This document shows positions 5,476 to 60,429 of a stretch of 64,000 bases of DNA, piece after piece. Under the pieces are notes generated by a model. It ran no database searches. It was given only the letters and a program-made list of their open reading frames with translations, and had not been told where the DNA came from. Each line of letters begins with the position of its first letter. Within the stretch, counting starts at the first letter, position 1. The stretch is taken from positions 34,752 to 98,751 of the forward strand of contig JAAYCL010000044.1 in the NCBI GenBank assembly GCA_012729785.1, in the 5' to 3' direction. The position numbers were made by a program, and so were the translations under genes. The DNA is from Chlamydiota bacterium (GTDB taxonomy: Bacteria; Auribacterota; Tritonobacteria; UBA1439).

Positions 5476-7227
5476 ATGACCGTAGTGCGCACCGTCGTTT
5501 TGGCGCAGCCGCCGCTCCCGGCGAACGAGCGACACAAGCGGGTGCTCCCCCTGGGGCTCGCCTACCTGGCCGCCTACGCCCGCGATCGAATCCCCGGGCT
5601 GCGCGTGCGGATCGTCGACGGCCAGGCGTGCAAGCTCACCGTCCCCCAGATCGCCGAGCAGGTGCGGGCGGAGGATCCTGGGGTTGTCGGCATCACCTAC
5701 TGGACCTGCCAGGCCCCCGCGGCGCACCTCCTCTCCCGGTTGCTCCGCGAGACGGCGCCGGGCGCCGCGATCGTGCACGGGGGGATCCATCCGACCATCT
5801 ATCCCTCCGCGGCGCTCGAGACGGCGGACTACTGCATCATGCACGAGGGAGAGGAGACGTTCGTAGAGCTCCTCCGTCTGCTCGCCGGGGAGGGGCGGGG
5901 GCCTGAGGGGATCGCGGGCCTCGCCTGGAGGGACGGCCGGGAGCCGCGCGTCAACCCGCCGCGGCCGTTCATCGCCGACCTCGACGCGCTCCCGTTCCCC
6001 GCGTGGGATCTCCTGCCGATGGACCGGTACGACTCGCCGCTCCACGTTGTCGGCGGCCGGCGGCTCCCCATCGTCGGTTCCCGAGGCTGCCCCTACGGCT
6101 GCACCTACTGCGGCTCCCCCTTGATGTGGGGCCGCCGCGTCAGGTGGCGCAGCCCGGAAAACATCCTCGCCGAGATGAAGGCCGCGATCGCCGCGCTCGG
6201 CCTCACGCAGTTCCATTTCTGGGACGACAACCTGATGCTCGACCGCCGCCATGTCGAGCGGCTCTGCCGTCTGATCATCGAGGAGCGGCTCGCCGTGCGG
6301 TGGACCGGTCTGACGCGCGCCTCCCATATCGCGCGCAACGGGGATCTGATGGGACTCCTGAAACAGGCAGGGTGCATCGGCCTGGAGGTGGGGATCGAGA
6401 GCGCGAACCCGGAGACGTTCTCGCAGATCGACAAAGACGAGGATTTGCAGGTCATCAGGGAGGTGGCGCACCTCCACAAGGCGCACGGGATGTCCCCCCT
6501 CTTCACCTACATGGCGTGCAACCCGGGGGAGACGATCTCCGGGTATTACGCCCAGGCGCGGTTCATCGACGAGCTTGTCGCGGGGCTCCCGTGGTACGCG
6601 CACTTTCACCCGATGCCCTTCCCGCTCTACACGGGGCAGTTCGCGACCCCCCATATGGGGACGAAGCTCCACGACGAGGCGCCGAAGCTCGGGATGGTGC
6701 TGGCGGAGCGGCTCGAGGAGTACCACCACCATCGGATCAACTTCGTGCCGAACTCGCTCCTCGACGACATACCCGCCCGCAACATCCGGGCGCTCGACCT
6801 GTACCAGTACCGGCTCTGCCGTTACGCCCTCTGGTACTCCTTCTGGGACGACTTCAACGCGGCGGTGCCCCGGGACCGGCAGCGGGAGACGCTGGCGCGG
6901 TACCGGGATTTTCTCTCCTTTTTCTGGAGACTGTGCGACGGCAGGAATACCATCCGCCAAATCGCCGCCGCCGCCGGCCGCAGGGCGGGCGTGGAACCGC
7001 GGCAGGCGGTGCGGTTCGCCGCTTTTACGGCGCTCATCCTCGGGCAGACCGGGGTGATCGTTTCGGCGATCCACGACGCGGGGAGGAGACGGCCGGTGGT
7101 TGCGGTGGCGACGCCGGCCCAGGTCGAGGGCTGCCTCACGCCGGCCGGGGGCGAGATGCCGCCCCCGTCCGCCGCGCGCCGGGTCGCCGACGAGGCCGTA
7201 CGGCTCCTGCGGCGGTTTCTCGGATAG
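5476..7227 (+). CDS. Cobalamin-binding (class B) radical SAM protein
   Basis: 583 aa from ATG 5476. Has a B12-binding-like N-terminus (VVLAQPPLPANERHKRVLPLGLAYLAAY) and a radical SAM CxxxCxxC motif (GSRGCPYGCTYCGSP). Confidence 0.85.
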   Translation: MTVVRTVVLAQPPLPANERHKRVLPLGLAYLAAYARDRIPGLRVRIVDGQACKLTVPQIAEQVRAEDPGVVGITYWTCQAPAAHLLSRLLRETAPGAAIVHGGIHPTIYPSAALETADYCIMHEGEETFVELLRLLAGEGRGPEGIAGLAWRDGREPRVNPPRPFIADLDALPFPAWDLLPMDRYDSPLHVVGGRRLPIVGSRGCPYGCTYCGSPLMWGRRVRWRSPENILAEMKAAIAALGLTQFHFWDDNLMLDRRHVERLCRLIIEERLAVRWTGLTRASHIARNGDLMGLLKQAGCIGLEVGIESANPETFSQIDKDEDLQVIREVAHLHKAHGMSPLFTYMACNPGETISGYYAQARFIDELVAGLPWYAHFHPMPFPLYTGQFATPHMGTKLHDEAPKLGMVLAERLEEYHHHRINFVPNSLLDDIPARNIRALDLYQYRLCRYALWYSFWDDFNAAVPRDRQRETLARYRDFLSFFWRLCDGRNTIRQIAAAAGRRAGVEPRQAVRFAAFTALILGQTGVIVSAIHDAGRRRPVVAVATPAQVEGCLTPAGGEMPPPSAARRVADEAVRLLRRFLG

Positions 7228-7252
7228 GAATCGGGACAGAAGGGGGGGCGGG

Positions 7253-8284
7253 GTGGCGTCCTTGAAGAAGCTCTATCAGTACCACACCTATCGGGGGGCC
7301 TTCCAGCTCGTCAGGATGCTCGCGCCTGGATGCGGGGCGGAGCGCGGAGTGTGCACCGCAGGCCGCCCCCCCGACGGCGTATCGCCCTCCCGCGATTACC
7401 GCGCGATGCTTGTGCGCCTTATGCGGTTCAACCTCGCCTACGGGGCTGAGCGCCTCCAGCCCATCCACTACGTGCGGTATATCGAATACGCCCTCGCCGG
7501 GGCCCTCGCGGACATAGGGGAGGGGATGCGCGTGCTCGACGTGGGGAGCGGGGGATCGCTTCTCCCCGCTTTTCTGCTCTCCCTCGGGGCGACGGTGTAC
7601 AGCACCGATATCGACGCCGGCGTGCGGTTTCAACCGAAGATATGCCGCCTCAACAAGTTGCTCCGGGAGAGGGATCTCGAGAGGCTGCGGGTCGAGATCA
7701 GGGACATGCGACGCACCGGCTATCCCGAAGGGTATTTCGACAGGGTGATACTGCTCTCGATGGTGGAGCATATCCACTACGGCGACGATTCCGTCGCGAT
7801 GAAGGAAGCCGCGCGCATCCTCAAGCCCGGGGGAAAAATCTTTCTCACCTTCGATGTCGCACGGGACGCCCACGAGCTCATCTACCAGGGGCGCTACTAT
7901 TATGGCTTCACCATGGACGACATCAGGGGGATACAGGACGAGGTGCGCAAGGATCCGTCGCGCCGCCTCCAGGAGGATTTCATTACGCTCAAGGAGGGAT
8001 ACAACCCAGGCTACACGCGCTTCTACAACGAACGCACGATGATGGAATCCCTCGTCGCCCCGTCGGGTCTGGAGCTCGTCGAACACGGTTATTTCGGGGA
8101 CCACACCTTCGTGATCAGGGCCTTTTTCGACAGGAGGGGGATCGTCGAGTATCTCCACTGGATCCAGCCGATCCTCGCGTTGCTCATCTACCGAAGATAC
8201 GCCGGTGCGAACGAGCTGAGCGAGAAGCCGGGCGCAATCGGGTACTGTGTCCTGCAAAAGCCGTCCGCGCCCCCCGGGGCATAG
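7253..8284 (+). CDS. Class I SAM-dependent methyltransferase
   Basis: GTG 7253 is preceded by AGGGGGGGCGGG. Motif I VLDVGSGGSLLPAFL and a post-I acidic TDID are present, plus KPGGKIFLTF. Confidence 0.75.
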   Translation: MASLKKLYQYHTYRGAFQLVRMLAPGCGAERGVCTAGRPPDGVSPSRDYRAMLVRLMRFNLAYGAERLQPIHYVRYIEYALAGALADIGEGMRVLDVGSGGSLLPAFLLSLGATVYSTDIDAGVRFQPKICRLNKLLRERDLERLRVEIRDMRRTGYPEGYFDRVILLSMVEHIHYGDDSVAMKEAARILKPGGKIFLTFDVARDAHELIYQGRYYYGFTMDDIRGIQDEVRKDPSRRLQEDFITLKEGYNPGYTRFYNERTMMESLVAPSGLELVEHGYFGDHTFVIRAFFDRRGIVEYLHWIQPILALLIYRRYAGANELSEKPGAIGYCVLQKPSAPPGA

Positions 8285-8301
8285 AGAACGCTCCACGCCT
8301 G

Positions 8302-8310
8302 TGCTATACT
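8302..8310 (+). promoter_or_regulatory. Candidate extended -10 element TGcTATACT upstream of wzm
   Basis: Lies in the 63-nt intergenic region, 38 nt upstream of ATG 8348. Confidence 0.3.
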
Positions 8311-8347
8311 GTGATCCTGTGTTCCCTGGGTACGTCGACAAGGGGGA

Positions 8348-9208
8348 ATGTGCGTGAGGGCGCTCTCGCGGCTGAAGTCCCTGTGCACCGTGCACCGGGA
8401 ACTGCTCTTCCACCTGGCGTTGAAGAACCTGAAGGTGCAGTACAAGTACGCCTTCCTCGGATTCCTCTGGGCGTTCTTCGTGCCGCTCTGCATGGCGCTG
8501 GTCTTCTGGTTCCTCTTCGCCTTCCTCTGGCAGCGGCCGATACCGCCCCTCTCCATCGTGACGGCCCTCTTCGTCTGGCAGTTCGTCAATATGAGCATCG
8601 CGAGCTCCACGACCTCCATCATCGACAACGCGGGCCTGCTCAAGAAGGTCTACATCCCGCGGGAGATCGTCCCCCTTTCGATCGTGCTGTCGAACTTCAT
8701 CAACTTCCTCCTGTCGCTCGTGGTGCTGGTCGTGCTGGTCCTGATCTACACCACCTTCAAGGCGGGTCACCCGATCCTCCCCGTACAGATCCTTTTGCTC
8801 CCCCCGCTGGTCGTGGTGACGTTCCTGATGACGTCGGGGTTCGTGCTGATCACCTCGTCCCTCCAGGTGCTCTACCGGGACGTGAAGTACATCGTGGAGA
8901 TCGCCCTCCTGATCATCTTCTATCTTTCCGGCGCCTTCTACGAGGTGGACCTGATCGCCGCCGGCGCCGCCAGGAAAGGGATTCCGTGGCTCGTGCACCT
9001 GTTCATGTTGAACCCGATCTACGACCTGTTCGCGATGTACCGGATCGTCCTTCTTCCCTCCGCCATCTCGGAGATGACGGTGGACATCTCGCGGTACTAC
9101 CCGGTCTGGCTTGTGGTCTCCCAGACCGTCGTGTTCAGCGTTCTCCTCTTCGTCGCCGCCTACCGGATGTTTCTGCGGAGGGAAGTCGACCTGGTCGACC
9201 TGATTTGA
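8348..9208 (+). CDS. wzm: ABC-2 type polysaccharide export permease (Wzm/TagG-like)
   Basis: 286 aa with 6 predicted TM helices. LKNLKVQYKYAFLGFLWAFFVPL is the ABC-2 permease signature. The RBS is AAGGGGGAATG. Confidence 0.85.
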   Translation: MCVRALSRLKSLCTVHRELLFHLALKNLKVQYKYAFLGFLWAFFVPLCMALVFWFLFAFLWQRPIPPLSIVTALFVWQFVNMSIASSTTSIIDNAGLLKKVYIPREIVPLSIVLSNFINFLLSLVVLVVLVLIYTTFKAGHPILPVQILLLPPLVVVTFLMTSGFVLITSSLQVLYRDVKYIVEIALLIIFYLSGAFYEVDLIAAGAARKGIPWLVHLFMLNPIYDLFAMYRIVLLPSAISEMTVDISRYYPVWLVVSQTVVFSVLLFVAAYRMFLRREVDLVDLI

Positions 9209-9212
9209 CCCC

Positions 9213-11513
9213 ATGAGCCACAGTATTGAAGTCAAGAATCTCCGGAAGAAGTACCGGGTCTACTTCGAGAAGCCGGCGCTCATCCGCAACATCCTCCCGT
9301 TCCTCGTCTCCCAGGGGAAGGCGCAGGAGTTTTGGGCGCTGGACGGCGTATCCTTCTCGATGCAGAAGGGGGAGTGCGTGGGGATCATCGGCCCCAACGG
9401 CTCGGGGAAGAGCACCATCCTGAGCATCCTCGCGGGGGTCTCCGCGCCCACGGAGGGCGAGGTCTCGATCAGCGGGAGGGTTTCCTCGCTCCTCTCGCTG
9501 GGAGCCGGGTTCAACTTCGAGCTCACCGGGCAGGAGAACGTCTACCTGAACGGCGCCATCCTCGGCCTCTCGAAAACGCAGATCGACGCCATCTACGACG
9601 ACATCGTGGCGTACGCCGACCTCGGGAGGTTCATGAACGCCAAGCTCTCGACCTACTCCTCGGGGATGAACATGCGCCTGGGCTTCGCCATCGCCGTGAT
9701 GGTGCCGTTCGACGTCCTCTTGATGGACGAGATCCTCGCCGTCGGCGACCTCTCCTTCCAGACGAAATGCTTCCGGACGATGCGGAAGTTCTGGGAGGAC
9801 GAGGGAAAGACGGTCATCTTCGTCTCTCACGACCTCGTCAAGATCGAGGAGATCTGCTCGAGCGTCCTCTGGTTCGAGCACGGCAAAATCGAGGCGATGG
9901 GCGCGCCGGAGGAGGTCATCGAGGCGTACCGGGAGCGCTACCGTGAGAAGCTCGCGCTCGGCCCCGCGGTGAAGCGGCAGGCGCGCGCCGAGGTCCCGGT
10001 GCTCGTGACCGTGGACGCCGCGAGGGAGCTCCGGCGGATCCCGGAGACGATCTTCGGAAGCAACGTCGACATCTTCAGCGACGGGTGCATCGTGTATGAC
10101 GGGAAGCGGCGGCAGGCAAACCGGATGGCCCACGCATGGATCGCGCCGCTCGGTTTCACATTGTTCAGATACCCCGGGATGTTCCATGCGGACTATTTTC
10201 ACTGGCGTGAGGCGGTCGGCGAGGAGCGCCTCCCGCAGGTGTGCGGCACCTCCTCCTCGAAATCCACGCTGCCGCCCACCTTCGGCCCCGCGGAGTTCCT
10301 CGATATGTGCACCACGCTCGCCGCGGCGCCGATGGTCACGCTGAACGCGGGGACGGGCACAGCGGAGGAGGCGGCGGCATGGGTCTCGTGGATCCGGGAG
10401 CGTTACCGGGGGCCGCTCCACCTCGAAATCGGGCACGAGCTCTACTACGACGAGTTCCATCCCCTCGGGGCCGACTTCCCCTGGACTCCCGCTCGCTACG
10501 CGGGAGCCGTGGAGGAGTTCTCGCGCGCCGTGCGGGCAGTGGACGGCGAGGCGAGGATCGGCGCGCAGTGCTGCATCGAGAACGGGGCGTTCACGCGTTA
10601 CCGCGACCCCCGCTGGAACGAGGCGCTCCTCGCGCTCCCACCAGGAACGTTCGATTTCCTCTCTCTGCACCACGCCTCCCTCCCCATCCTGAACATCACC
10701 GGAGACTACCGCACCCCCGCCGACGCCGAGACCTACGGTACGCTTCTCGCAGCCCCGGCCTTCGTCGAGGCGAGCCTGGCGGCGCTGGCGGCGCAGGCGG
10801 CGCGCGCGGGCCGGGCCGGCATCCCCATCGCCCTGAGCGAGTACGGCTGCTTCTTCACGAGCGTGCCGAACATCGTCCACGGGACCCACGCGGTGCACGA
10901 CCGCTGCTCCGACTCGGTGGAGTGGGGGAGGAACCACACGCTCGCCGCCGCCCTATACGAGGCAGGCGTCCTCCACGCCTGCCTCAGGCGGCCGGAGGTG
11001 CAGATCGCGGCGCGCATGACCCTCTTCCATACGCTCTTCTCCAGTGTGGCGGACTTGCGTCGCCAAGCCCGCCACCCGCAGTACCTCGTGCACGAACTTC
11101 TCGACAGATTCGCGGGCAAGACGCTGGTCCCCTCGCGGGTGGAGACGAAGCGGATCGCGACCCCGGCGCTGGGCTTCGTGCCGGCGCTGCGCGATCTCCC
11201 GATCTGCGAGGCGGTGGCGGTGAAGGATGCCGGAGGGGGAAAGATCGCCCTCTCCCTGATCAACCGCAGCCTGGACAGTCCCATCAGCGTCCGGCTCGAC
11301 CTGAACGGCTTCGCGGCGCGCTTCTGCACCGTCAGGACCGTCTCCGCCGAGAGCCCGGAGTGCGACCACACCCTCCCCGGCCCCGGCCAGGTGGCGATGG
11401 GGCAGCAGACCTATCGCACGGAGGGGATGCGGGGAGGGGACGGGTTGCTGCGCTATCTCCTTCCGCGGCACTCGCTGAGCGTGATCTCCTTTTCCGACGA
11501 GGACTGGATCTGA
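9213..11513 (+). CDS. wzt: ABC transporter ATP-binding protein (Wzt/TagH-like NBD) fused to a ~500-aa glycoside-hydrolase-like (clan GH-A TIM-barrel-like) C-terminal domain
   Basis: Walker A GPNGSGKST, signature LSTYSSGMNMRL and Walker B LLMDEILAVGD lie in the first ~250 aa. The C-terminus contains LEIGHELYYDE and IALSEYGCFF, reminiscent of GH-A acid/base and nucleophile glutamates. Confidence 0.85.
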   Translation: MSHSIEVKNLRKKYRVYFEKPALIRNILPFLVSQGKAQEFWALDGVSFSMQKGECVGIIGPNGSGKSTILSILAGVSAPTEGEVSISGRVSSLLSLGAGFNFELTGQENVYLNGAILGLSKTQIDAIYDDIVAYADLGRFMNAKLSTYSSGMNMRLGFAIAVMVPFDVLLMDEILAVGDLSFQTKCFRTMRKFWEDEGKTVIFVSHDLVKIEEICSSVLWFEHGKIEAMGAPEEVIEAYRERYREKLALGPAVKRQARAEVPVLVTVDAARELRRIPETIFGSNVDIFSDGCIVYDGKRRQANRMAHAWIAPLGFTLFRYPGMFHADYFHWREAVGEERLPQVCGTSSSKSTLPPTFGPAEFLDMCTTLAAAPMVTLNAGTGTAEEAAAWVSWIRERYRGPLHLEIGHELYYDEFHPLGADFPWTPARYAGAVEEFSRAVRAVDGEARIGAQCCIENGAFTRYRDPRWNEALLALPPGTFDFLSLHHASLPILNITGDYRTPADAETYGTLLAAPAFVEASLAALAAQAARAGRAGIPIALSEYGCFFTSVPNIVHGTHAVHDRCSDSVEWGRNHTLAAALYEAGVLHACLRRPEVQIAARMTLFHTLFSSVADLRRQARHPQYLVHELLDRFAGKTLVPSRVETKRIATPALGFVPALRDLPICEAVAVKDAGGGKIALSLINRSLDSPISVRLDLNGFAARFCTVRTVSAESPECDHTLPGPGQVAMGQQTYRTEGMRGGDGLLRYLLPRHSLSVISFSDEDWI

Positions 11514-11547: not shown

Positions 11548-12765
11548 ATGGACCATCGCGACGAACATCGGCTCGCAGGGATAACCGGCGGGTCCCGCGC
11601 CCTCTGCGGGCCCGAACAGATCCATCTCGATCTCACCAACGCGTGCACACTGCGCTGCCTCTGCTGCTGGCACCGCTCGCCGCTCCTTGCCGCAGGGGAT
11701 ATTCCCCCCCACTGGTCGCCGGACCACCGTCTCTCGTACGAGACGGCCCTCGGCGTCATCGAGGACGCGGCGGCGATGGGGGTTCGGCGGATCATATTCA
11801 GCGGCGGGGGCGACCCCCTCTGCCACCCCCGCACGATGGACCTGCTCCGGGCCGCGGCGGAGAGGGGGCTGGAGACCACCCTCATCACCAACCTCGTTGT
11901 CGCCGGGGCGGAGACGATCCGAACGCTTGTCGAGGCGCGCCTCGGCAGGCTGGCGGTGAGTCTGTGGGCCGGCGACGAAAAGACGTACGCCGTGATGCAT
12001 CCGGGCGCGTCTTTCGGGACCTTCGGGAGGATCGTGGGGCTGCTCCGGGGCCTCGGGGCCCCCCTCCCTCCGGGACGCGGGCCGCAGCTCATCCTGACGC
12101 ACGTGCTGTGCGCGCGCAACGCCGGGAATATCGAGGCGATGGTGCGCCTTGCCGTGGAGCTCGGCGCGGGCCAGATCTGGTTCCAGCCGACGGATGTGGA
12201 GACGCCGCGTCTGAAGCCGCTCCTGCTGGGCCGGGCGGAGATCGCGGCCGTCGTCGCGTCGCTCGAAAACTGCGCCGCACGGTTCCGCCCCCTCCTGCGG
12301 CCCGGGCAGGAGGGGCTTCTCGACTTCAGCCTGCTCCTCGGAAAGCTTTCCAACAGCAGGGCCCACGAAGGGGTCTTCCACTCCGACGTGATCGACACGA
12401 TGCCCTGCTACATGGGTTGGTACGAGAGCCGGATACTCGCCAACGGCGACGTGGTTCCGTGCTGCAAGGCGGACCGTCTTCCGCTCGGTTCTGTGCGCGA
12501 GCGGCGCTTCCGCGACATATGGTTCTCGCCTGCGTACGACGAGTTCCGGAGGCGGGCGCTGACCCTCTCCAAGTCGGACCCGTACTTCGCGAAGATCCGG
12601 TGCGGGAAGTTCTGCGACGACTGGTGGCTGAATGCCATCGTCCACCGGTCGTACCTCGGCAGCCGCGCGCGGCCCGGCGGGAGGGACCGGCGCGGGCCGG
12701 CCAAACGGATCCTCTCCGCGTTTCTCAAACTGGCGGGTCGGCGGGGCGGGGAGGGGGGGGCGTGA
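11548..12765 (+). CDS. Radical SAM / SPASM-domain protein
   Basis: 405 aa with CxxxCxxC (LTNACTLRCLCC). The C-terminal Cys cluster (CYMGW...VVPCC...KIRCGKFC) is SPASM-like. Confidence 0.85.
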   Translation: MDHRDEHRLAGITGGSRALCGPEQIHLDLTNACTLRCLCCWHRSPLLAAGDIPPHWSPDHRLSYETALGVIEDAAAMGVRRIIFSGGGDPLCHPRTMDLLRAAAERGLETTLITNLVVAGAETIRTLVEARLGRLAVSLWAGDEKTYAVMHPGASFGTFGRIVGLLRGLGAPLPPGRGPQLILTHVLCARNAGNIEAMVRLAVELGAGQIWFQPTDVETPRLKPLLLGRAEIAAVVASLENCAARFRPLLRPGQEGLLDFSLLLGKLSNSRAHEGVFHSDVIDTMPCYMGWYESRILANGDVVPCCKADRLPLGSVRERRFRDIWFSPAYDEFRRRALTLSKSDPYFAKIRCGKFCDDWWLNAIVHRSYLGSRARPGGRDRRGPAKRILSAFLKLAGRRGGEGGA

Positions 12766-13907
12766 AGGTCGTCTTCATCGGGCTCAGCGGCTATGACCAT
12801 CCGTACGTGCGGGTGCGCTGCCACAACTTCGCGAAGCTGCTCAGGGAACGGGGGGTCGAGGCGGAGGTGCTCTCCTTCAAGGAGGCATTCTCCCCCTCGG
12901 TCGCGGACGACGGGATGCTCCGCCTCCGCGACCCGCAGAAGCTCGGGCAGACCCTGAGGGCGCTGTGCCGGCTGGCGGGGAAGCGGCGGGCGATCCTTTA
13001 CGTTCAGAAGGCGCACTGGCATGCGGCGGCGCCGTTCATCCTCCGGAGGTTGCGGCTCAACCGGTTCGTCCTCGACTACGACGATTGGGATCTCGACCGG
13101 TCGCCGTTCTTCGACCGGAAGCGGATGAACCGGCTGCTGTTCGGGGCCGACGGCGTGGAGCCGATCACGCGGCGGGTGGCCGCCGCGGCGGACGCGGTGG
13201 TGGCGTCCAGCGGGCCTCTCCTCGAGCTCATGCGGCGGTACAACCCCGCCGCGTTTCTCGTCCCGACCGGCGTCGACGAGAAGAGGTTCAGGAGGACGGG
13301 ACCTCCCCCCGAAGGCCCCGTCACCGCGGTCTGGTGCGGGAAGGTATGGGGGCGAGTGATCTACGAGAACCTCCGTTTTTGCGTCGACTGCGTGCTCGAT
13401 GCGCGGCGCGTCCATCCGTCCCTGCGGTTTGTCGTCGCCGGGGACGGCGCGTGGATGGGGAGGATCGAAGAGTATGTCCGGGAGCGGGGCGCGGGCGGTG
13501 TCGAGTTCGCCGGATGGATACACCCCGACCGGATGTCCGATTTCCTCTCGCGGGCGCACATAGGGCTCCTCCCGCTGGTCCCCGACGCCGAAAACTCCGA
13601 TTGGATGCGGTGCAAGAGCCCGACAAAGCTTTTCGAGTACATGGCCATGGAGATCCCCACCGTGGCCAGCAGGTACGGGGAGGCGGTATCCATCGTCGCC
13701 GACGGGCAGGAGGCGTTCCTCGCCTCGGAGAGGGGGGAGTTCGCCGCGAAGCTGGCCGCGCTCGCCGGGGACGCGGGCCTCAGGCGAGCGATGGGCTCGC
13801 GGGCTCGGCGAAGGGTGGAGGAGAGATACTGCCATCGGGTGATGGGGGACGCCCTGCTGGAGGCGGTCGAGTGCGCGGCCGGCCTCCGCGGTCGCCTCGG
13901 AGGCTGA
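12762..13907 (+). CDS. GT4-family glycosyltransferase
   Basis: GTG 12762 overlaps the upstream stop (GTGA). The C-terminal EIPTVASRYGEAVSIVADGQEAFL and overall GT-B layout match GT4. Confidence 0.8.
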   Translation: MKVVFIGLSGYDHPYVRVRCHNFAKLLRERGVEAEVLSFKEAFSPSVADDGMLRLRDPQKLGQTLRALCRLAGKRRAILYVQKAHWHAAAPFILRRLRLNRFVLDYDDWDLDRSPFFDRKRMNRLLFGADGVEPITRRVAAAADAVVASSGPLLELMRRYNPAAFLVPTGVDEKRFRRTGPPPEGPVTAVWCGKVWGRVIYENLRFCVDCVLDARRVHPSLRFVVAGDGAWMGRIEEYVRERGAGGVEFAGWIHPDRMSDFLSRAHIGLLPLVPDAENSDWMRCKSPTKLFEYMAMEIPTVASRYGEAVSIVADGQEAFLASERGEFAAKLAALAGDAGLRRAMGSRARRRVEERYCHRVMGDALLEAVECAAGLRGRLGG

Positions 13908-15547: not shown

Positions 15548-15578
15548 GGGGCGTCAATTCCACTCCGTCTTTGTGAGC

Positions 15579-23376: not shown

Positions 23377-23404
23377 GATGTCCAATCCCCTAAGGCAGGG
23401 CCTT

Positions 23405-43776: not shown

Positions 43777-43835
43777 GGACGGGGTGGCGGGTGGCGCGAG
43801 GTAGATGCTATACTTGCGCGTCCGGAGGGTTGATC

Positions 43836-44771: not shown

Positions 44772-44785
44772 AGGCGGGGGGAACG

Positions 44786-49245: not shown

Positions 49246-49692
49246 ATGCTGCGTCACGAGATGTGGAGGGACGAGCTCCAGGCGTGGATGATCGCACGGG
49301 ACAGCGCGACGCCGGCCGAGCTGCTGCGCAATGCCCGCCATGAAAGCCATCCGGCCCTCTGGCACGTTCCCCTCTACGGCGTCTCGCGGGCGACCCGCGA
49401 TCCGCGGGGGATGCAATTATTGCACCTGTGCATCGCCACGGGTGCGGTGTGCCTTTTCGTGCGCGCCGCGCCCTTTTCCCGGGTACAGAAAGTCTTGTGC
49501 GCCCTCGGCTACTTCCCCCTCTTCGAGTACGGGATCATCAGTCGGAGCTACTCCCTCGGGATGGCGCTGCTATTCCTCTTCTGCGCGCTCTGCTGCATGC
49601 GCGCGGACATCATCTGGATCGCCTGTACGCTGGCCCTCCTGTGCCAGACGAATCTCATCGGCCTCCTCCTCGCCGTATGCGCCGCGGTGTAG
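49246..49692 (+). pseudogene. Probable remnant (N-terminal ~150 aa) of a PMT_2/GT-C membrane glycosyltransferase
   Basis: MLRHEMWRDELQAWMIARD...HESHPALWHVPLY matches the first-loop motif of the GT-C paralogs, but the ORF stops after 3 TM helices. The in-frame upstream sequence encodes a hydrophobic stretch without a start codon. Confidence 0.4.
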
Positions 49693-52214: not shown

Positions 52215-52430
52215 TCAATGCGCGGCATGAACACGAAACACAACCGCCGCTGCAAAAGCGATATCCGGCGGCCTGCGCAGTCGCCCGCGGATTCAGGATT
52301 TGCACTTTCAGCGTGTTTGTTCTTTAGTATACTTGCCCCCGCGCTGCGTCGCCGTCGGGTGCCCCGCTCGTGTGATACGGCAGCGCTAAATCCGGCTTGG
52401 CCCCGGTTTGTCTAACTTCTCTGCCGCGAG

Positions 52431-52441
52431 TATACTATAAT
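52431..52441 (+). promoter_or_regulatory. Candidate -10 region TATACTATAAT (consensus TATAAT at 52436-52441) for the downstream radical SAM operon
   Basis: Perfect TATAAT lies ~133 nt upstream of ATG 52575 in the lowest-GC stretch of the window. The -35 (TAACTT) is weak. Confidence 0.35.
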
Positions 52442-52574: not shown

Positions 52575-53633
52575 ATGAAGATACGGCATTTATTTCGGGC
52601 GGGAAAGGCTGTTCTTGAGGAGCGCCTCCTGGGCAGGCGGCGGCCGCTGGCGGTCTGGATCGACATCACCAACCGCTGTCCCGCCGGCTGCGCCTACTGC
52701 GACATCTCCAAGAGCGGGAAGAAGGACATGCCGCTCGAGGGGCTCCTGCGCATCATGGACGAACTCGCGGCTATGGGGTGCGTGCGTCTTCACCTCACCG
52801 GCGGCGACCCCCTCATCAGGGACGATATCGGAGAGATCATCGGGCGCGGGAAAGGAATGGGATTCCTCGTGACCCTTTCCGTCCGCGAACACTTCGTCCG
52901 GAGGCGGCTCGAGGCCCTGAAGAACGCCGATATGGTGTTCCTGAGCTTCGAAGGGCTGAAGGATGTCCACGAGGAGCTCAAAGGTAGGGGGAGCTTCCCC
53001 CTGCTCCTGGATGCGTTCAAGGCGCTCAGGGAGCGCGGGATACGCACGCTCACCACCACGACGCTCACCAGGCGCAACAGGGAGTTCATCCCGTTCATCC
53101 TCGAAACCGCCCGGAACTACGGCTTCGTCACCAACTTCCAGTGCCTTCACTATCCGCTGGGGGCGGCGGGAGGGGGGGGGTTCCGCCGGGAGCACCCGCT
53201 GGCGGAACTGCTCCTCGACGAGGAGGAACACCGCCGCATCGGGAACGAGCTCATCGCCCTGAAACGCTCCGGTGCGCCGATCGCCGACTCGGAGATGTGT
53301 CTCAGGCGCATCTTCATCGACTGGGAGGATCACCGCGCGATTTTTCTCCCGCGCCGGCCCCCGGGGCACCCGCCGTGCCGGGCGGGCCGGCTCTTCTGCC
53401 AGATCGACGTGGAGGGGATCGTCTACCCGTGCGGATCCACTTTCGAACGGGCCCGGAAGGAGCTCTACCTGAACGCCCTCGAGGTCGGGATGCGCAAGGC
53501 GTTCCGCGCCCTCCCCGAAAGCTCCTGCGCGGCGTGCGTGCAGGCGTGCCACGTGGAGCTCAACCTGCTCCTGTCGCTGAATCCGGGAACGATCATGCAC
53601 TGGTGCCGGCAGCTCATCGGAAAGAGGATATGA
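52575..53633 (+). CDS. Radical SAM / SPASM-twitch domain protein
   Basis: ITNRCPAGCAYCD is the CxxxCxxC motif. C-terminal Cys CRAGRLFCQ...CGS...CAACVQAC. Alternative TTG start at 52554. Confidence 0.8.
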   Translation: MKIRHLFRAGKAVLEERLLGRRRPLAVWIDITNRCPAGCAYCDISKSGKKDMPLEGLLRIMDELAAMGCVRLHLTGGDPLIRDDIGEIIGRGKGMGFLVTLSVREHFVRRRLEALKNADMVFLSFEGLKDVHEELKGRGSFPLLLDAFKALRERGIRTLTTTTLTRRNREFIPFILETARNYGFVTNFQCLHYPLGAAGGGGFRREHPLAELLLDEEEHRRIGNELIALKRSGAPIADSEMCLRRIFIDWEDHRAIFLPRRPPGHPPCRAGRLFCQIDVEGIVYPCGSTFERARKELYLNALEVGMRKAFRALPESSCAACVQACHVELNLLLSLNPGTIMHWCRQLIGKRI

Positions 53634-56192: not shown

Positions 56193-57566
56193 ATGAAGAT
56201 CGCGCTCGTTTTCCCGCGGTTGAATTCTAGGTCGGGGGACCCGCCCCTCGGGCTTGGGTACCTCGCCTCCAACCTGCCCGCAGACCTCGGGGCGCGGGTG
56301 ACCCTCGTGGACGGGACGTTCCTCAAATCGGCGGAGGAATTTCACGCCAGGCTCGAAGAGACTCGCCCCGACCTCGCGGGCATCTACTTCGACACGATGA
56401 GCTACGAACGCGGGATCGAGGCTGCCAGGCGGGCGAGGGCGATGGGGGCGTTCGTGGTGGCCGGGGGCCCGCACGCGACGGTCCTCCCCGAGACACTCGT
56501 GGATCATGCGGACATCGTGGTGCTGGGCGAGGGTGAGCGGACCTTCGCCGAGGTCGTCCGGGCCTCGGCGTCCCGCGATCTGAAGGGGGTACGGGGCATC
56601 TGCTACCGGGAGGGAGGCCGGATCGTCACGAGCGCACCCCGCGAGCCGGTCGCGGATTTGGACGCCTTGGAGTTCCCGGACCGGCGCCTGTTCGATATGG
56701 AGAGGTACACGGCGACCTGGCACTACCTCGACATCCTCGGGATGAAGATCAGGGGGACGACGGTCGTCGCCTCCCGGGGCTGCCCCTTCCGGTGCACCTA
56801 CTGCCAGCCCACGCTGGTGAAGCTGTTCGGCAGCCGGCTGAGGATGCGGAGCCCGTCGAACATCGTCGCGGAGATCGCGGGGCTGAAGCAAGACCACGGC
56901 ATCAGGGGGATCTTCTTCCACGACGACACGCTGACGGCGAACCGGCGCTGGCTCGAGGAGCTCTGCGACCGCCTCATCGCGGACCGGCTCGATATCCTGT
57001 GGGCGTGCAACACGCGGGCCGACATCACCGATGACGCGACGTTCCGGAAGATGCACGAGGCGGGCGTCCGGTATCTCCACATCGGCGCCGAGTCGGGCAG
57101 CCAGCGGATACTCGACGACGTCTACAAAAAGCGGATACGCCTCGAGAACATCAAGACGACCATCGCCGCGGCGAGGCGGGCGGGGATCAGGGCGGGCTGC
57201 TTTTTCATGCTCGGCGCCCCGACGGAGACAAGGGAGGAGCTCCGCAGGACCATACGATTCGCCTCCTCGCTCGACATAGACGAGGCGACGTTCAACATCG
57301 CTACCCCCCTCCCCGGGACATACCTGTTCGACATGGTGACGGAGCTCGGCTACAAAATCAGCGACAACTACACGGATTTCAACTACTATTCACGCAGGGC
57401 GTTCGAGGACCCGAACATAGACACCCGGACGCTGAAGAGATTCCAGCGGAAGGCCCTCTTCAGCTTCTACCTGCGGCCCCGGCGCTGGGGGTACATCCTG
57501 CGGCATTTCGTGTCGCCCGGGGGCATCCCGAAGCTCGTCACCAAGGTCAGGAGATTCTTCCGATGA
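56193..57566 (+). CDS. Cobalamin-binding (class B) radical SAM protein
   Basis: MKIALVFPRL...LGLGYLASNL; ASRGCPFRCTYCQ. Confidence 0.85.
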   Translation: MKIALVFPRLNSRSGDPPLGLGYLASNLPADLGARVTLVDGTFLKSAEEFHARLEETRPDLAGIYFDTMSYERGIEAARRARAMGAFVVAGGPHATVLPETLVDHADIVVLGEGERTFAEVVRASASRDLKGVRGICYREGGRIVTSAPREPVADLDALEFPDRRLFDMERYTATWHYLDILGMKIRGTTVVASRGCPFRCTYCQPTLVKLFGSRLRMRSPSNIVAEIAGLKQDHGIRGIFFHDDTLTANRRWLEELCDRLIADRLDILWACNTRADITDDATFRKMHEAGVRYLHIGAESGSQRILDDVYKKRIRLENIKTTIAAARRAGIRAGCFFMLGAPTETREELRRTIRFASSLDIDEATFNIATPLPGTYLFDMVTELGYKISDNYTDFNYYSRRAFEDPNIDTRTLKRFQRKALFSFYLRPRRWGYILRHFVSPGGIPKLVTKVRRFFR

Positions 57567-59008
57567 AGGTTAAGTTCGTCAACGCAACCCTCGGGGGCGA
57601 CTACAGCGCGCTCGACATCGCCATCACCTGCCTGGCCACCTACCTGAACGAGAGGACGCCGCATCGCGCCACGATTACGGACCTGACGTTCAGGCGGAGG
57701 GTGTGGAAAGAAAAGCTGCTGGCCGACATCGACCGGGATGCGCCGGACCTGATCGGCATCTCCGCCAACACGATGTACATGCAGTACGTGAAGGAGGTCA
57801 TCGCGCACATCGCGCGGCACCGCAACCTCCCGGTTATCCTCGGCGGCTACCACGCGTCGCTCAAACCCGAGGAGACGCTCTCGCTTCCCGGCGTGGACGC
57901 CCTTTTCATCGGAGACGGGGAGCTCACCCTCGCCGACTATCTAAACCGCCTCGAGGGGGGCGGGGACGTCTCGCAGATCCCCGGCGTCTGGACGAAGCGC
58001 AACGGAACCATCGTCAAGACCGGCCGGGGGTGTTTCATCAAGGAGATCGACAGTCTCCCGATCCCCAACTGGGACCTCTGGGAGGATCTGGACCTCTACT
58101 TCTACTTCCTGGGGATGCTCTACATCATCGGCACGCGCGGCTGCCCGTTCAAGTGCACCTACTGCGACGCGCACGGCATCTCGGAGGCGGTGGAGGGGCA
58201 GTACTACCGGGTGCGGGACCCGGTCAGCTACGCGCAGGAGATCGCCTTTCAGTGGGAGAAATATAAGCACCGGAACATGCGGCTCGCCCAGCTCTTCGAC
58301 CAGATCCCCACCGCCAGCATCGCGTGGCTGCGTCCGTTCTGCGAGTCCTACATGCAGACGAGCGCCTGGGGAAAACTGCGGTACAGCATGTTCGCCCGCA
58401 TCGACCAGCTCGACGAGGAGAAGCTGGAGCTGCTGGGCAAGTCGGGGTGCGCCCTCCTGCGCGTCGGGATCGAGTCCGGGAACGACTTCATCCGCAACGA
58501 GGTCTACGGCAAGCATATCTCCCGGGAGAAGATTAAGGAGATCTTCAGGATCGCCAAGGCGAACGGCATCGGCTTCACGGCGTTCAACATCCTCGGGGGC
58601 CCCGCCGAAACCCCGGCGACGCTGCGGGACACCATCCGGCTCGCCATGGAGCTCGACGCGAACCGGACCGCCTTTTTCATCTACAAGCCGTTCACCGAGG
58701 AGGGATGCCGGCAGATCTACCAGTACGGCGGATGGATAGACGATGCGCGGTGGAAGGCGGCCGACAACATCACCTTCGGCGCCGTGGTCGAATCGAAGAA
58801 GCTAAGGGTCAGGACGGTGGAACGGTACCAGAAAATCGCCTACTTCCTCACCTTCGGCAGACGCCTGCTCAGGATGATCCTGCGCCAGAAGCTACGGTAC
58901 TTCAGGAACCTCTTCGTCTACCTCCGGCGGGGGTGGCGGTACGGCCTGCACTTCGGCTACACGATGATCTACTACCACATCTACGGCTACGACAACGTCG
59001 ACAAATGA
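57563..59008 (+). CDS. Cobalamin-binding (class B) radical SAM protein
   Basis: ATGA overlap with the upstream gene. GTRGCPFKCTYCD. Confidence 0.85.
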   Translation: MKVKFVNATLGGDYSALDIAITCLATYLNERTPHRATITDLTFRRRVWKEKLLADIDRDAPDLIGISANTMYMQYVKEVIAHIARHRNLPVILGGYHASLKPEETLSLPGVDALFIGDGELTLADYLNRLEGGGDVSQIPGVWTKRNGTIVKTGRGCFIKEIDSLPIPNWDLWEDLDLYFYFLGMLYIIGTRGCPFKCTYCDAHGISEAVEGQYYRVRDPVSYAQEIAFQWEKYKHRNMRLAQLFDQIPTASIAWLRPFCESYMQTSAWGKLRYSMFARIDQLDEEKLELLGKSGCALLRVGIESGNDFIRNEVYGKHISREKIKEIFRIAKANGIGFTAFNILGGPAETPATLRDTIRLAMELDANRTAFFIYKPFTEEGCRQIYQYGGWIDDARWKAADNITFGAVVESKKLRVRTVERYQKIAYFLTFGRRLLRMILRQKLRYFRNLFVYLRRGWRYGLHFGYTMIYYHIYGYDNVDK

Positions 59009-60429
59009 GGATTGCCTTCGTCCACAGCTTCCCCCAGGAATACCACGGCATCATGTACCTCGCCGCGGCGCTCAAGGCCGCGGGGCACGAGTGCGAGGTG
59101 TTCGTCACCTCGCTCGAGAAGAACATCCTCGGGGAGCTCGCCCGTTTCGCCCCCCGCCTCGTGGGTTTCTCCTGCACCACCGGCGAGCACCTCGCGATGG
59201 CGCGCCTTGCCGGACGGGTCAGGCGGGAGCTCGGCGCGATGACCGTCTTCGGCGGAGCGCACGCGACCGTCTGCCCCGAGATCGTCGAGCACGAGGGCGT
59301 GGACGCCGTCTGCGTCGGGGAGGGGGAGGACGCCCTCTGCGAGCTCGCGGCGGTCCTGGAGCGGAACGGAGAGATCGCCGAAATCAGGAACCTTTGGGTC
59401 AAGCGCGGCGGCGCCGTGGTGAAGAACGAACCCAGGCCGCTGCGGGAGGATCTCGAGAGCCTCCCCCGGCCCGACTGGTCCCTGTACTACAAGTACCGGT
59501 TCCTCCGCGAGAAGACGACGAAGACGTTCATCGGGAGCCGTGGGTGCCCGTTCCGCTGCACCTTCTGCACGGACCCGTATTTCCAGTCGCTCTACCGCGG
59601 GAAGGGGAGGTACCTCAGGATGCGGGCTCCGCGGAGCTTCGCCGCGGAGATACGGGAGCAGAAGGAGATCCTGCGCTTCGACACGGTCACCTTCGACGAC
59701 GAGGTCTTCGTCTGGAACAGGGACTGGCTGCGCGAGTTCCTCCCTCTCTATCGCAGGGAGGTCGGCCTCCCGTTCTTCTGCGGCGTCAGGGCGGACACCC
59801 TGACCGAGGAGATCGTGGGCGAGTTGCGCGAGGCCGGCTGCTACGGGATGTCGTTCGGCGTCGAGAGCGGGAGCGAATTCGTCCGGAACGAAATAGGGGG
59901 GAAGGGGATCAGCAACGAGCAGATCGTCTCGGCGGCCCGGTGGGTGAAGGCGCGGGGGATCATTTTGAGGACGACCAGCATGTTCTGCATGCCGGGCGAG
60001 ACCCCCGCGCGGGCCTGGGAGACCGTGCGCCTCAACGTCGACTGCCGGGTCGACCACCCGTTCGCCTACGTCTACCAGCCCCTCCCGAAGACCGGGATGT
60101 ACGACTACGCCAAGGCGCGCGGCTACCTCGGCGACGGGTTCAACTTCGACCGGCTCGAGCCGCTCCACCTCGGCGACAATCCTTTGCGGCTGGAGAGGAA
60201 GGGGGAAATCCTGAACATCCAGAAGCTCTTTTACCTCGCGGTCCGCCACCCGCGCCTCATCCCCCTGCTGCGGCTCCTCGTGAAACTCCCCCCGAACCCG
60301 CTCTTCAACGGAATCTTCAAGATCTGCCTGGTGAGGAACTACTCGCGCTACAAGAAACTGGGCCTGCGCAAGACCCTCGCGATCGCCCTGAAGACGCGCG
60401 GTATCGCGCAGGAGGTCGAACCGCTATGA
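59005..60429 (+). CDS. Cobalamin-binding (class B) radical SAM protein
   Basis: ATGA overlap with the upstream gene. MRIAFVHSFPQEYHGIMYLAAALKAAGHE; GSRGCPFRCTFCT. Confidence 0.85.
   Translation: MRIAFVHSFPQEYHGIMYLAAALKAAGHECEVFVTSLEKNILGELARFAPRLVGFSCTTGEHLAMARLAGRVRRELGAMTVFGGAHATVCPEIVEHEGVDAVCVGEGEDALCELAAVLERNGEIAEIRNLWVKRGGAVVKNEPRPLREDLESLPRPDWSLYYKYRFLREKTTKTFIGSRGCPFRCTFCTDPYFQSLYRGKGRYLRMRAPRSFAAEIREQKEILRFDTVTFDDEVFVWNRDWLREFLPLYRREVGLPFFCGVRADTLTEEIVGELREAGCYGMSFGVESGSEFVRNEIGGKGISNEQIVSAARWVKARGIILRTTSMFCMPGETPARAWETVRLNVDCRVDHPFAYVYQPLPKTGMYDYAKARGYLGDGFNFDRLEPLHLGDNPLRLERKGEILNIQKLFYLAVRHPRLIPLLRLLVKLPPNPLFNGIFKICLVRNYSRYKKLGLRKTLAIALKTRGIAQEVEPL

Follow-up and report, generated by a model that had tools for sequence, protein, structure and literature searches.

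We analyzed a stretch of 64,000 nucleotides (hereafter the window; contig JAAYCL010000044.1 of GenBank assembly GCA_012729785.1) in which 13 genes for radical S-adenosylmethionine enzymes (rSAMs) are interleaved with genes for glycosyltransferases, a polysaccharide exporter and nucleotide-sugar enzymes. Because the window has a G+C content of ca. 66% and is crowded with shadow open reading frames (ORFs), genes were called by log-odds of codon usage, with the longest ORFs of high third-position G+C as the training set. This yielded 48 genes, whose junctions are short or overlap. Many metagenome contigs, one of them 1.74 Mb long, carry exact copies of the encoded proteins in the same gene order, and the source is an uncultured bacterium of the PVC superphylum that is abundant across many metagenome samples. 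Public taxon labels disagree: the identical protein records NLW95152-NLW95189 come from a metagenome-assembled genome (MAG) labelled "Chlamydiae/Chlamydiota bacterium", while members of the 90%-identity clusters are labelled "Candidatus Aureabacteria/Auribacterota". MAGs of the Auribacterota are reported to encode cobalamin ABC transporters, and the paper in question is silent on rSAM or glycan loci (PMC9324843).

The original prediction, made from the letters of the window without database searches, had read the 13 genes as 8 cobalamin-binding class-B and 5 SPASM/twitch rSAMs. Each of its coordinates lands on a called gene (26771, 29351 and 25652 are the low ends of minus-strand genes; the start at 52575 agrees with public gene calls, whereas our codon-usage model places it at 52554). 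In searches with profile hidden Markov models (HMMs), all 8 class-B genes, here named B1 to B8, encode a B12-binding domain (PF02310, E-values 4.5e-14 to 1.9e-23) followed by a radical SAM domain (PF04055, 4.7e-16 to 1.9e-27), each above the curated Pfam cut-offs. The 5 shorter genes, rA to rE, invariably carry the radical SAM domain at the N-terminal side (PF04055 in 5 of 5, E-values 3.7e-11 to 1.1e-25), and a SPASM domain (PF13186) lies above the cut-off in rA (11548), rB (25652) and rE (55070), which bears out the predicted class for these three. For rC (39082) and rD (52575), which have no PF13186 match, the label is reasonable but unproven and draws on C-terminal cysteine groups (C318xxC321 in rC and C325xxC328xxxC332 in rD, each with three further cysteines upstream). 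Every one of the 13 proteins has a single CxxxCxxC motif, which takes the form CPxxCxxC in all eight B proteins, and predicted transmembrane (TM) segments are absent from all of them. The description of B1 to B8 as cobalamin-binding should be read as a domain call: AprD4 has the same domain layout as class-B rSAMs, yet is not known to use cobalamin. None of the 13 rSAMs reaches a curated NCBIfam cut-off, and a specific family name therefore cannot be assigned to any of them.

With 13 of 48 genes (27%), rSAMs are far in excess of the ca. 0.5-1 gene expected from their usual share of about 1-2% of the genes in anaerobe genomes. Pairwise identities among the 13 paralogues are only 20-34%, which rules out recent tandem duplication as the source of this excess, and divergence of this degree would imply 13 different jobs. 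At its densest, the window has at most 7 rSAM genes per 21.4 kb. Loci in Brocadiaceae, Scalindua, Omnitrophota and Desulfobacterota have 7-8 per ~21 kb, with 8 in Brocadiaceae and 7 each in Scalindua, Omnitrophota and two proteobacterial MAGs. The window is one of the largest examples (13 rSAMs within its bounds, at least 14 across the cluster) but not unique in rSAM density.

The families of the neighboring genes are likewise as had been predicted. Pfam searches and TM prediction find 6 glycosyltransferases of family GT2, 2 of family GT4, the exporter proteins Wzm and Wzt and 6-8 GT-C-like membrane proteins, besides genes for nucleotide-sugar formation. That all 13 rSAM genes belong to a single glycan locus was also confirmed, except that this locus is larger than the window: it extends past both ends to a total of more than 85 kb and holds at least 14 rSAM genes. 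Its right flank encodes a polysaccharide deacetylase, a methyltransferase, the 14th rSAM (B12-type, 528 aa) and more large proteins without a Pfam match, and its left flank encodes a GT4, methyltransferases, a Wzx-type flippase and another PMT_2 protein.

Recurrent modules of rSAM and glycosyltransferase genes

A comparison of genome neighborhoods in relatives, which the original prediction had named as a check, showed that three groups of window genes recur as orthologous sets beside glycosyltransferases. We refer to these sets as modules A, B and C.

Module A consists of the membrane-anchored glycosyltransferase GT2_b and the rSAM B3, which lie in a minus-strand operon of the order GT2_c-B3-GT2_b-B2-rB with rB as its last gene. 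B3 aligns end to end with the hopanoid enzyme HpnJ (TIGR03471) at 376 bits, where the cut-off is 577.6; the same model is the best NCBIfam match of B2 at 213 bits and scores 184 bits for B6 and less for the remaining rSAMs. Identity between B3 and the proteins annotated as HpnJ in Burkholderiaceae is only 36-37%, and TIGRFAM HpnJ matches are confined to genomes with squalene-hopene cyclase (SHC) and HpnH, so B3 represents a separate, uncharacterised sister family. None of SHC, HpnH, HpnI and HpnK is encoded in the window or its flanks, and an assignment of B3 to HpnJ proper was rejected on score and gene context.

More than 4277 homologues of B3 were found, and identities of 50-64% are kept across phyla. 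We scanned one genome per GTDB species, which gave 80 loci from more than 15 phyla with B3 orthologs of 47-80% identity, and searched their six-frame ORFs with all window proteins. These loci come from Chloroflexota/Dehalococcoidia, Omnitrophota, anammox and other Planctomycetota, Magnetococcales, Desulfobacterota, Patescibacteria, Dependentiae, Elusimicrobia, Chlamydiota, Acidobacteriota, Firmicutes and Bacteroidota, among others. A GT2 gene lies no more than 400 bp from the B3 ortholog in 48 of the 80 loci; within the stretch fetched, 71 loci contain a GT2 and 75 any glycosyltransferase, and at least one extra rSAM (up to seven) is present in 39. Homologues of GT2_b itself (identity of 40% or more, with 80% or more of its length covered) occur in 17 of the loci fetched for a B3 ortholog, and homologues of the window's GHMP kinase (41-47% identity) are found near B3 orthologs in 14.

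In its most compact form, seen in Dehalococcoidaceae, the module is a two-gene unit of a GT2 and a B3-type rSAM with a 4-bp overlap. On a Patescibacteria contig and in a Pseudodesulfovibrio MAG, the B3-type rSAM is found beside a small GT2 and a DUF2304 protein, and in these two and a third MAG the unit lies among genes for NTP transferase/HAD, GHMP kinase, SIS, methyltransferase and PMT_2 proteins together with several B12-type and SPASM rSAMs. Other rSAMs of the window accompany the module as well: orthologs of rB are 75-87% identical in loci L010 and L011 and 48% identical in the Auribacterota locus L066, and homologues of B4 (41-42%) are neighbors of the B3 ortholog in loci L067, L071 and L073, which come from Omnitrophota and Planctomycetia. 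B4 has its best NCBIfam match in the Sden_1168 P-methyltransferase family (254 bits, cut-off 575).

One B3 ortholog (51-52% identity) is encoded on the 27-kb plasmid 1 of Lawsonia intracellularis, a pathogen available in culture (locus L166, NC_008012.1), and all three plasmid records of this species contain a B3-type match; the same plasmid search gave no match with B7 and one weak match with B1. Besides GT2s, GalE, a GT2 with DUF2304, SIS, the B3-type rSAM and a second rSAM, plasmid 1 encodes five class I methyltransferases, an HAD/NTP-transferase protein, DUF6077 and DUF2142 proteins and a GHMP kinase with 42% identity to that of the window. Most of this plasmid (locus 5151-23714) is a glycan set of the module A type that is annotated only generically.

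Module B comprises the glycosyltransferase GT2_e, the FAD-dependent oxidoreductase FADox and the rSAMs B6 and B7. They form part of the operon rD-B5-rE-B6-B7-B8-FADox-GT2_e, which is tightly packed with overlaps of 4 bp at rD/B5, B6/B7, B7/B8 and B8/FADox and spacings of 6 bp (B5-rE), 31 bp (rE-B6) and 34 bp (FADox-GT2_e); a promoter-like site upstream of rD (52408-52436) is supported by weak evidence. Among solved structures, GT2_e is nearest to dolichol-phosphate-mannose synthase over its full length (5MLZ, E 1.2e-29), followed by ArnC and GtrB. FADox scores above the cut-off of PRK07233 (264 versus 252 bits), and searches against solved structures matched only its generic FAD-binding N-terminus.

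B7 has 575 homologues. Outside its own lineage, the 120 best of those listed share 50-63% identity along their full length and come from Planctomycetota, Elusimicrobiota, Omnitrophota, Bacteroidota and the DPANN archaea Woesearchaeota and Nanoarchaeota. In an Elusimicrobiota MAG, orthologs of FADox (41%), B6 (49%), GT2_e (47%) and B7 (62%) stand together with housekeeping genes on both sides, and an Omnitrophota contig has all four (38%, 47%, 48% and 58%, respectively) within a Wzx/GT2/GT4 cluster with further rSAMs. In these two loci (L095 and L096; FADox 38-41%, GT2_e 47-48%), the B6 ortholog (46-49%) lies immediately upstream of that of B7. A Woesearchaeota MAG encodes B7 (58%) and a B6-like protein (37%) beside other rSAMs and a DegT aminotransferase. 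A metagenome scan for module B added 68 loci, of which the 38 with at least 4 kb of flanking sequence are informative. B6 is adjacent to B7 in 26 of these, a GT2 is present in 24, a flavoprotein in 14 and all three in 8. Further upstream in the operon, orthologs of rD (61%) and B5 (68%) are found side by side in locus L065.

Module C is the exporter block, in which B1 lies directly upstream of a methyltransferase gene and the Wzm/Wzt genes, and to which the SPASM rSAM rA and the glycosyltransferase GT4_b also belong. The B1 family has 326 matches in Auribacterota, Schekmanbacteria, Coatesbacteria, Riflebacteria and others. Two B1 homologues with 55-56% identity, P0394 and P0395, are fusions of the rSAM to a C-terminal GT2 domain, and the block around P0394 (locus L165) repeats that of the window with Wzm (66%), a Wzt that also has the tail (44%), GT4_b (45%), rA (50%) and orthologs of GT2_a (59%) and GT4_a (50%). 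Different fusions are seen in P0068 (confirmed with Pfam) and P0098 (from precomputed domains), which join an HpnJ-like rSAM to a class I methyltransferase, and in P0488, which joins an rSAM of the B1 family to a SPASM rSAM. All five fusion proteins offer Rosetta-stone evidence, and they could serve as test enzymes made of one polypeptide.

At least six of the 13 rSAMs belong to these modules. Because the three modules recur beside glycosyltransferases in unrelated phyla and because an rSAM is found fused to a GT2 domain, we conclude that the rSAMs are in all likelihood functionally tied to glycan assembly, an association that gene context strongly supports.

Glycan machinery and other genes of the window

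Wzm and Wzt combine an ABC-2 permease with an ATPase that carries a C-terminal domain, as is characteristic of ABC-transporter-dependent polysaccharide export. The tail of Wzt ends in a beta-sandwich of the Alpha-L-AF_C type (29-30 bits, cut-off 27) and probably binds glycan. Six proteins belong to the PMT_2 type of GT-C enzymes, four above the Pfam cut-off and two below. Five of the six GT2s most resemble polyprenyl-phosphate sugar synthases of the AglJ, dolichyl-phosphate-hexose, PpgS or ArnC type; their best NCBIfam models (AglJ, dolichyl-phosphate-hexose and PpgS) all score below the equivalog cut-offs (GT2_c with 155 bits against AglJ). The window brings together GT2s of the dolichol-phosphate-mannose synthase (DPMS) clade and PMT_2/GT-C enzymes in one locus. 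A flippase of the GtrA type was not recognised in the window.

Table 1. Radical SAM genes, glycan machinery and further features, with positions in the window unless stated otherwise.
Feature	Position	Strand	Basis
PMT_2 (GT-C) fused to NHL beta-propeller	2549-5401	+	Pfam, TM prediction
B1, B12-binding-domain rSAM, 583 aa, helical C-terminal extension	5476-7227	+	PF02310, PF04055
Class I SAM methyltransferase of 343 aa, candidate for chain-end modification or O-methylation	7253-8284	+	Pfam Methyltransf_11/25/23
Wzm permease	8348-9208	+	ABC2_membrane (PF01061)
Wzt ATPase, C-terminal extension of ~500 aa ending in beta-sandwich	9213-11513	+	ABC_tran (PF00005), Alpha-L-AF_C
rA, rSAM with SPASM, 405 aa, in exporter block	11548-12765	+	PF04055, PF13186
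GT4_b glycosyltransferase, start overlaps rA stop codon (gap -4)	12762-13907	+	Pfam Glyco_trans_1_4
Other PMT_2-type proteins	13985-15547, 17439-19517, 19519-21687, 33491-35173, 40151-42178		Pfam, TM prediction
Two further polytopic membrane proteins	21724-23409, 49800-52073	-	TM prediction
ADP-ribosylglycohydrolase-family protein, 733 aa	23481-25682	+	
rB, rSAM with SPASM, 359 aa	25652-26731	-	Pfam
B2, B12-binding-domain rSAM, 456 aa	26771-28141	-	Pfam
GT2_b, membrane-anchored GT2, 341 aa, 3 C-terminal TM segments	28306-29331	-	Pfam, TM prediction
B3, HpnJ-like B12-binding-domain rSAM, 483 aa, module A core	29351-30802	-	Pfam
GT2_c, AglJ/DPMS-like GT2, C-terminal TM domain	30805-31980	-	Pfam; GT2_TM_C in public calls
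DUF362 + 2x[4Fe-4S] ferredoxin protein	35140-36288	+	Pfam DUF362, Fer4
B4, B12-binding-domain rSAM, 488 aa	36378-37844	+	Pfam
Protein of 376 aa with two TIGR04076 copies	37951-39081	+	
rC, rSAM, 353 aa, twitch-like C-terminal Cys set	39082-40143	+	PF04055, Fer4_12
PurH-like protein	42238-43776	+	
Sugar-activation block: three SDR epimerase/dehydratase/reductases, NTP transferase, GHMP kinase	43830-48358	+	Pfam
NTP transferase	46713-47372	+	Pfam
GHMP kinase, HddA-like	47369-48358	+	Pfam
rD, rSAM, ~352-359 aa, SPASM-like CxxCxxxC tail	52575-53633	+	PF04055
B5, B12-binding-domain rSAM, 477 aa	53630-55063	+	Pfam
rE, rSAM with SPASM, 363 aa	55070-56161	+	Pfam
B6, B12-binding-domain rSAM, 457 aa, module B	56193-57566	+	Pfam
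B7, B12-binding-domain rSAM, 481 aa, module B core	57563-59008	+	Pfam
B8, B12-binding-domain rSAM, 474 aa	59005-60429	+	Pfam
FADox, FAD-dependent oxidoreductase, amine-oxidase/phytoene-desaturase fold	60426-61706	+	Pfam Amino_oxidase, full length
GT2_e, polyprenyl-phosphate sugar synthase-like GT2, 241 aa	61741-62466	+	Pfam
GT2_f, then Polysacc_deac_1 deacetylase, class I methyltransferase, 14th rSAM (B12-type)	6977-9993 of locus L090, just right of the window		

The DUF362-ferredoxin protein, whose gene is part of the rSAM-rich operon, is a candidate for a donor that supplies electrons specifically to the rSAM clusters. Its homologues are encoded close to orthologs of B3 or B7 in Dehalococcoidaceae (loci L019 and L092), in Elusimicrobia (L054) and in loci L107 and L128. 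Several other genes of the window are unusual in make-up or location. The protein between B4 and rC has no Pfam match beside several conserved Cys-Pro motifs and is conserved (51-66% identity) along with rC in L010 and L011, which are close relatives. A divergent PurH-like protein (fold of AICAR transformylase/IMP cyclohydrolase, 155 bits, cut-off 402) is encoded in the middle of a glycan operon beside GT-C and SDR genes, an odd location for a purine enzyme, and its role might be to transfer a formyl or other group to a sugar. The ADP-ribosylglycohydrolase-family protein begins with a signal- or lipoprotein-like sequence and has no assignment for its C-terminal half, and its gene adjoins module A genes in L010 and L011. 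Two membrane proteins are unusual fusions to extracytoplasmic binding domains, namely the PMT_2 protein with an NHL beta-propeller and the protein at 49800-52073, in which ca. 7 TM segments without a Pfam match are joined to an F5/8 type C (discoidin) domain. The window further encodes two GDSL/SGNH proteins. Relaxed Pfam searches revealed nothing new for the proteins at 15573-16196, 21724-23409, 37951-39081 and 49246-49692, for the ORF after GT2_e (a DUF2304 candidate), or for the B1, Wzt and ADP-ribosylglycohydrolase-like tails.

Proposed radical tailoring of envelope sugars and its alternatives

We consider it fairly likely that the window is the central part of a cell-envelope glycan supercluster in which lipid-linked, nucleotide-linked or nascent sugars are tailored by radical chemistry. 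Cytoplasmic activation of the sugars would fall to the GHMP kinase, nucleotidyltransferase and SDR enzymes, likely by a route of the GDP-heptose or 6-deoxy-heptose type, and DPMS/ArnC-like GT2s would load them on polyprenyl phosphate or GT2s and GT4s would extend a lipid-linked chain. The 13 soluble rSAMs would act in the cytoplasm on lipid-linked or nucleotide-linked sugars or on those of the nascent chain, probably with electrons from the DUF362-ferredoxin protein. Abstraction of hydrogen atoms at unactivated carbons could then lead to C-methylation, 1,2-diol dehydration (deoxygenation), ring contraction or carbocycle formation, epimerisation or oxidation. Finally, Wzm/Wzt would export the main chain, while tailored polyprenyl-phosphate sugars would be flipped and then transferred outside the membrane by GT-C enzymes. 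The locus as a whole would be a mosaic of cassettes A, B and C that also circulate among other phyla.

The likely chemistry can be narrowed only in part. An AlphaFold2 model of B1 (pLDDT 92.5) has its best fold match in AprD4 (6FD2, TM-score 0.72), followed by the cobalamin enzymes TsrM, MgmA, CysS, TokK and OxsB, and AprD4 is also the top sequence match among solved structures for both B1 and B3. The nearest solved structures are BlsE, SkfB, PqqE and viperin for rC and PqqE, BlsE, SkfB, Tes and DesII for rE. The original prediction had proposed radical C-methylation or rearrangement of sugars, of which the tie between rSAMs and glycan assembly holds up; C-methylation is not established, given that the relatives HpnJ and AprD4 are not methylases. 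For HpnJ, ring contraction of a hopanoid-linked glucosamine has been proposed, and both HpnJ and OxsB rearrange rings and do not methylate (PMC9204698). Plausible reactions include C-methylation, deoxygenation and ring contraction as well as epimerisation or oxidation and decarboxylation, and it seems probable that several of these chemistries are used by 13-14 such divergent enzymes.

The sugar route is best described as tentative. It would follow from the HddA-like kinase and the HddC-like gene of the window together with the SIS and HAD genes that accompany B3 orthologs in Patescibacteria, in locus L008 and on the Lawsonia plasmid; GHMP kinase genes are present in the Patescibacteria and Pseudodesulfovibrio loci and on Lawsonia plasmid 1, and an NTP transferase gene in the first two of these. 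SIS, HAD, NTP transferase and GHMP kinase near B3 orthologs are gene types of the GDP-heptose route. The assignment to heptose is tentative because GmhA and GmhB are not encoded in the window and because the scores of the HddA-like kinase (133 bits, cut-off 600) and of the SDR that resembles GDP-L-fucose synthase (Fcl; 260 bits) are below the equivalog cut-offs.

Several observations weigh against radical tailoring of sugars. SIS and HAD genes are, like GmhA and GmhB, missing from the window itself, and an Rfam scan of the whole window found neither a cobalamin riboswitch nor any other family. The likeness of rC and rE to BlsE, DesII and viperin is probably in large part a generic similarity of the rSAM core, and what we propose for the functions of the rSAMs draws on sequences, models and gene context. 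HpnJ as a precedent has a function known from a knockout, and its mechanism is untested (PMC13459092). Moreover, B8 and rE, and outside close relatives also B2 and rC, have no ortholog of at least 40% identity in the fetched loci (at most 32% for B8, for which no close ortholog outside its own lineage was found), and the link of these four to the glycan therefore comes only from their position in this genome. Finally, lipid-chain tailoring is a possible role of module B because of the phytoene/squalene-desaturase fold of FADox and because of similar lipid-candidate clusters in Kuenenia.

This last point leads to the most serious rival, namely that the rSAMs and the flavoprotein modify the hydrocarbon part of a polyprenyl carrier or a glycolipid and that the GT2s merely glycosylate this lipid. 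Many characterised class-B rSAMs do act on isoprenoids or other lipids, such as HpnP, HpnR and the ladderane candidate Kuste2803 (PMC9204698, PMC2649909), the family nearest to B3 belongs to the hopanoid pathway, and FADox also matches HpnE, though with 90 bits and below the cut-off. The lipid-candidate clusters of Kuenenia and Desulfotalea similarly combine an rSAM, a phytoene-dehydrogenase-like protein, a glycosyltransferase and a deacetylase-like protein (PMC2649909). However, no genes for fatty-acid synthase (FAS), polyprenyl synthase, squalene cyclase or acyl carrier protein (ACP) are found in the window or its flanks, matches to the "lipid biosynthesis B12 rSAM" model TIGR04072 score 88-121 bits where the cut-off is 360, and the substrate proposed for HpnJ itself is the sugar head group instead of the hopanoid (PMC9204698). 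Module A travels with GHMP kinase, NTP transferase, SIS and HAD genes and a B1-type rSAM is fused to a GT2 domain, which both fit a lipid substrate poorly, and we regard lipid tailoring as unlikely.

We find it more improbable still that the locus makes a glycosylated small molecule, i.e., an oligosaccharide or aminoglycoside-like metabolite tailored by rSAMs as in the gentamicin, apramycin and blasticidin pathways. It is true that the nearest sugar-modifying relatives (AprD4, BlsE, DesII and, according to a review, GenK) all come from antibiotic pathways, but the locus is equipped for work at the envelope, with Wzm/Wzt and its tail of a carbohydrate-binding type, a Wzx-type flippase in the left flank, 6-8 GT-C-like proteins and five DPMS/AglJ-like GT2s. 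The 2-deoxy-scyllo-inosose synthase, aminotransferase and resistance genes of aminoglycoside clusters are absent from the window, and the modules occur in genome-reduced bacteria of the candidate phyla radiation (CPR), in archaea of the DPANN group and on the plasmid of a pathogen with an obligate intracellular life. Still less credence is due to the maturation of a peptide or surface protein, either as a ribosomally made peptide with post-translational modifications (RiPP) or as a glycoprotein, with later glycosylation. SPASM and several B12-type rSAMs are best known as peptide maturases, and PqqE, ApyD and maturases of mycofactocin and sactipeptides are indeed among the top NCBIfam matches, but these matches are far below the cut-offs and mainly cover the common rSAM core. 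The nearest family to GT2_b is MftF, a glycosyltransferase of mycofactocin (144 bits, cut-off 280), and the C-terminal part of B1 gives a weak match to PqqD, a RiPP recognition element (RRE), which at 17-18 bits stays below the cut-off of 23.4; in the model, this region is helical and without an RRE match, and B1 homologues are instead joined to a GT2 domain. The window contains no protease, leader peptidase or RRE protein, and its intergenic gaps of at least 90 bp hold no credible ORF for a precursor peptide, with the small ORFs there showing low third-position G+C and no ribosome-binding context.

Radical tailoring of sugars, our favored reading, could apply well beyond this locus. That radical SAM editing of lipid-linked sugars forms a widespread and unrecognised layer of glycan diversification, spread among mostly uncultured anaerobes and DPANN as horizontally exchanged cassettes, is a proposal that we make tentatively and with slightly more doubt than confidence. 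The window would then rank among its richest examples, with 14 or more distinct radical enzymes in a single assembly line. Such editing would yield C-methylated, deoxygenated, ring-contracted or carbocyclic envelope sugars that are not yet catalogued. If so, envelope glycans across uncultured anaerobes such as Dehalococcoidia, anammox bacteria, Omnitrophota, Elusimicrobiota, CPR and DPANN carry radical-made sugars that current glycan analysis and annotation would overlook, and at least 3 new, well-conserved rSAM families (50-64% identity across phyla) come with a genomic handle on their substrates. Compact test systems are available with the two-gene GT2-rSAM unit of Dehalococcoidia, the four-gene module B of Elusimicrobiota and the 27-kb plasmid of L. 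intracellularis, through which the question reaches the surface of a veterinary (pig) pathogen.

Comparison with known systems

The enzyme superfamilies found here are known, and so are radical tailoring of sugars (in antibiotic pathways and at the HpnJ step) and glycan assembly through polyprenyl-phosphate sugars and GT-C enzymes or through Wzm/Wzt. By contrast, we did not find the combination of multi-rSAM cassettes with envelope glycan assembly across many phyla described in NCBIfam or in full-text searches of a literature library, which returned no account of rSAM-rich envelope glycan loci. The original prediction that the locus is not a described pathway type is borne out in this sense, with the amendment that comparable loci exist in other phyla. 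The component families B3, B6/B7 and B1 are uncharacterised, and the window is a rich example of a widespread locus type.

Among the closest known systems is the HpnI/HpnK/HpnJ system of Burkholderia cenocepacia, in which a GT2 links a sugar to a lipid, a deacetylase may follow and an rSAM with a B12-binding domain rearranges the sugar (PMC9204698, PMC13459092). Similarly, the right flank of our locus has GT2_f, a deacetylase, a methyltransferase and a B12-type rSAM in a row, and B3 usually lies beside a GT2. A GT2 and a deacetylase are arranged in a similar way in ArnC/ArnD, and both ArnC/ArnD and DprE1/DprE2 act on polyprenyl- or lipid-linked sugars. The gene order of the right flank fits precedents for lipid-linked sugars such as HpnI/HpnK/HpnJ and ArnC/ArnD. 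Unlike in the HpnJ system, the GT2 partner of B3 has no HpnI match at E<=1e-10 and no hopanoid genes are nearby, and the B3 family is found in Dehalococcoidia, CPR, Omnitrophota and others, whereas HpnJ occurs only in hopanoid producers.

Sugar-tailoring rSAMs of antibiotic pathways, i.e., the paromamine (sugar 1,2-diol) dehydratase AprD4, the C-methylases GenK/GenD1, the decarboxylase BlsE, and DesII, share the domain architectures of the window's rSAMs and act on C-H bonds of sugars, but sequence identity is only ~23%. These pathways have one or two rSAMs each, while the present locus has many in an envelope-glycan context and with none reaching a family cut-off.

The ladderane-candidate or TIGR04072 clusters of anammox bacteria and Desulfotalea resemble the locus in combining several rSAMs (one of them B12-type) with a phytoene-dehydrogenase-like flavoprotein, a glycosyltransferase, a deacetylase-like protein and a methyltransferase (PMC2649909). 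They are, however, defined by FASII genes (FabF paralogues and ACP), of which the window has none, and membership in this group was rejected on the lack of FAS genes and the TIGR04072 scores given above. Among anammox bacteria, module A loci rich in rSAMs are found in Scalindua and in a Brocadiaceae MAG. The S-layer O-glycan of the anammox bacterium Kuenenia stuttgartiensis has up to five methyl groups on six sugars at positions that are unsolved (PMC5088730). This glycan might be an example of a radical-tailored product and serves as a lead only; Kuenenia is not among the retrieved loci, other anammox bacteria are.

In its glycosyltransferases, the locus resembles three-component glycosylation systems made of a GtrB/ArnC-type GT2, a flippase and a GT-C enzyme, given its five DPMS/AglJ/ArnC-like GT2s and 6-8 GT-C-like proteins. 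In its exporter block, a Wzt with an extended C-terminal domain next to a methyltransferase gene is reminiscent of chain-terminated O-polysaccharide systems. To our knowledge, no rSAM enzymes are known from three-component or ABC-dependent O-polysaccharide systems, and we found none there. Unlike in those systems, the rSAM genes of this locus share operons with the GT2s and with the exporter.

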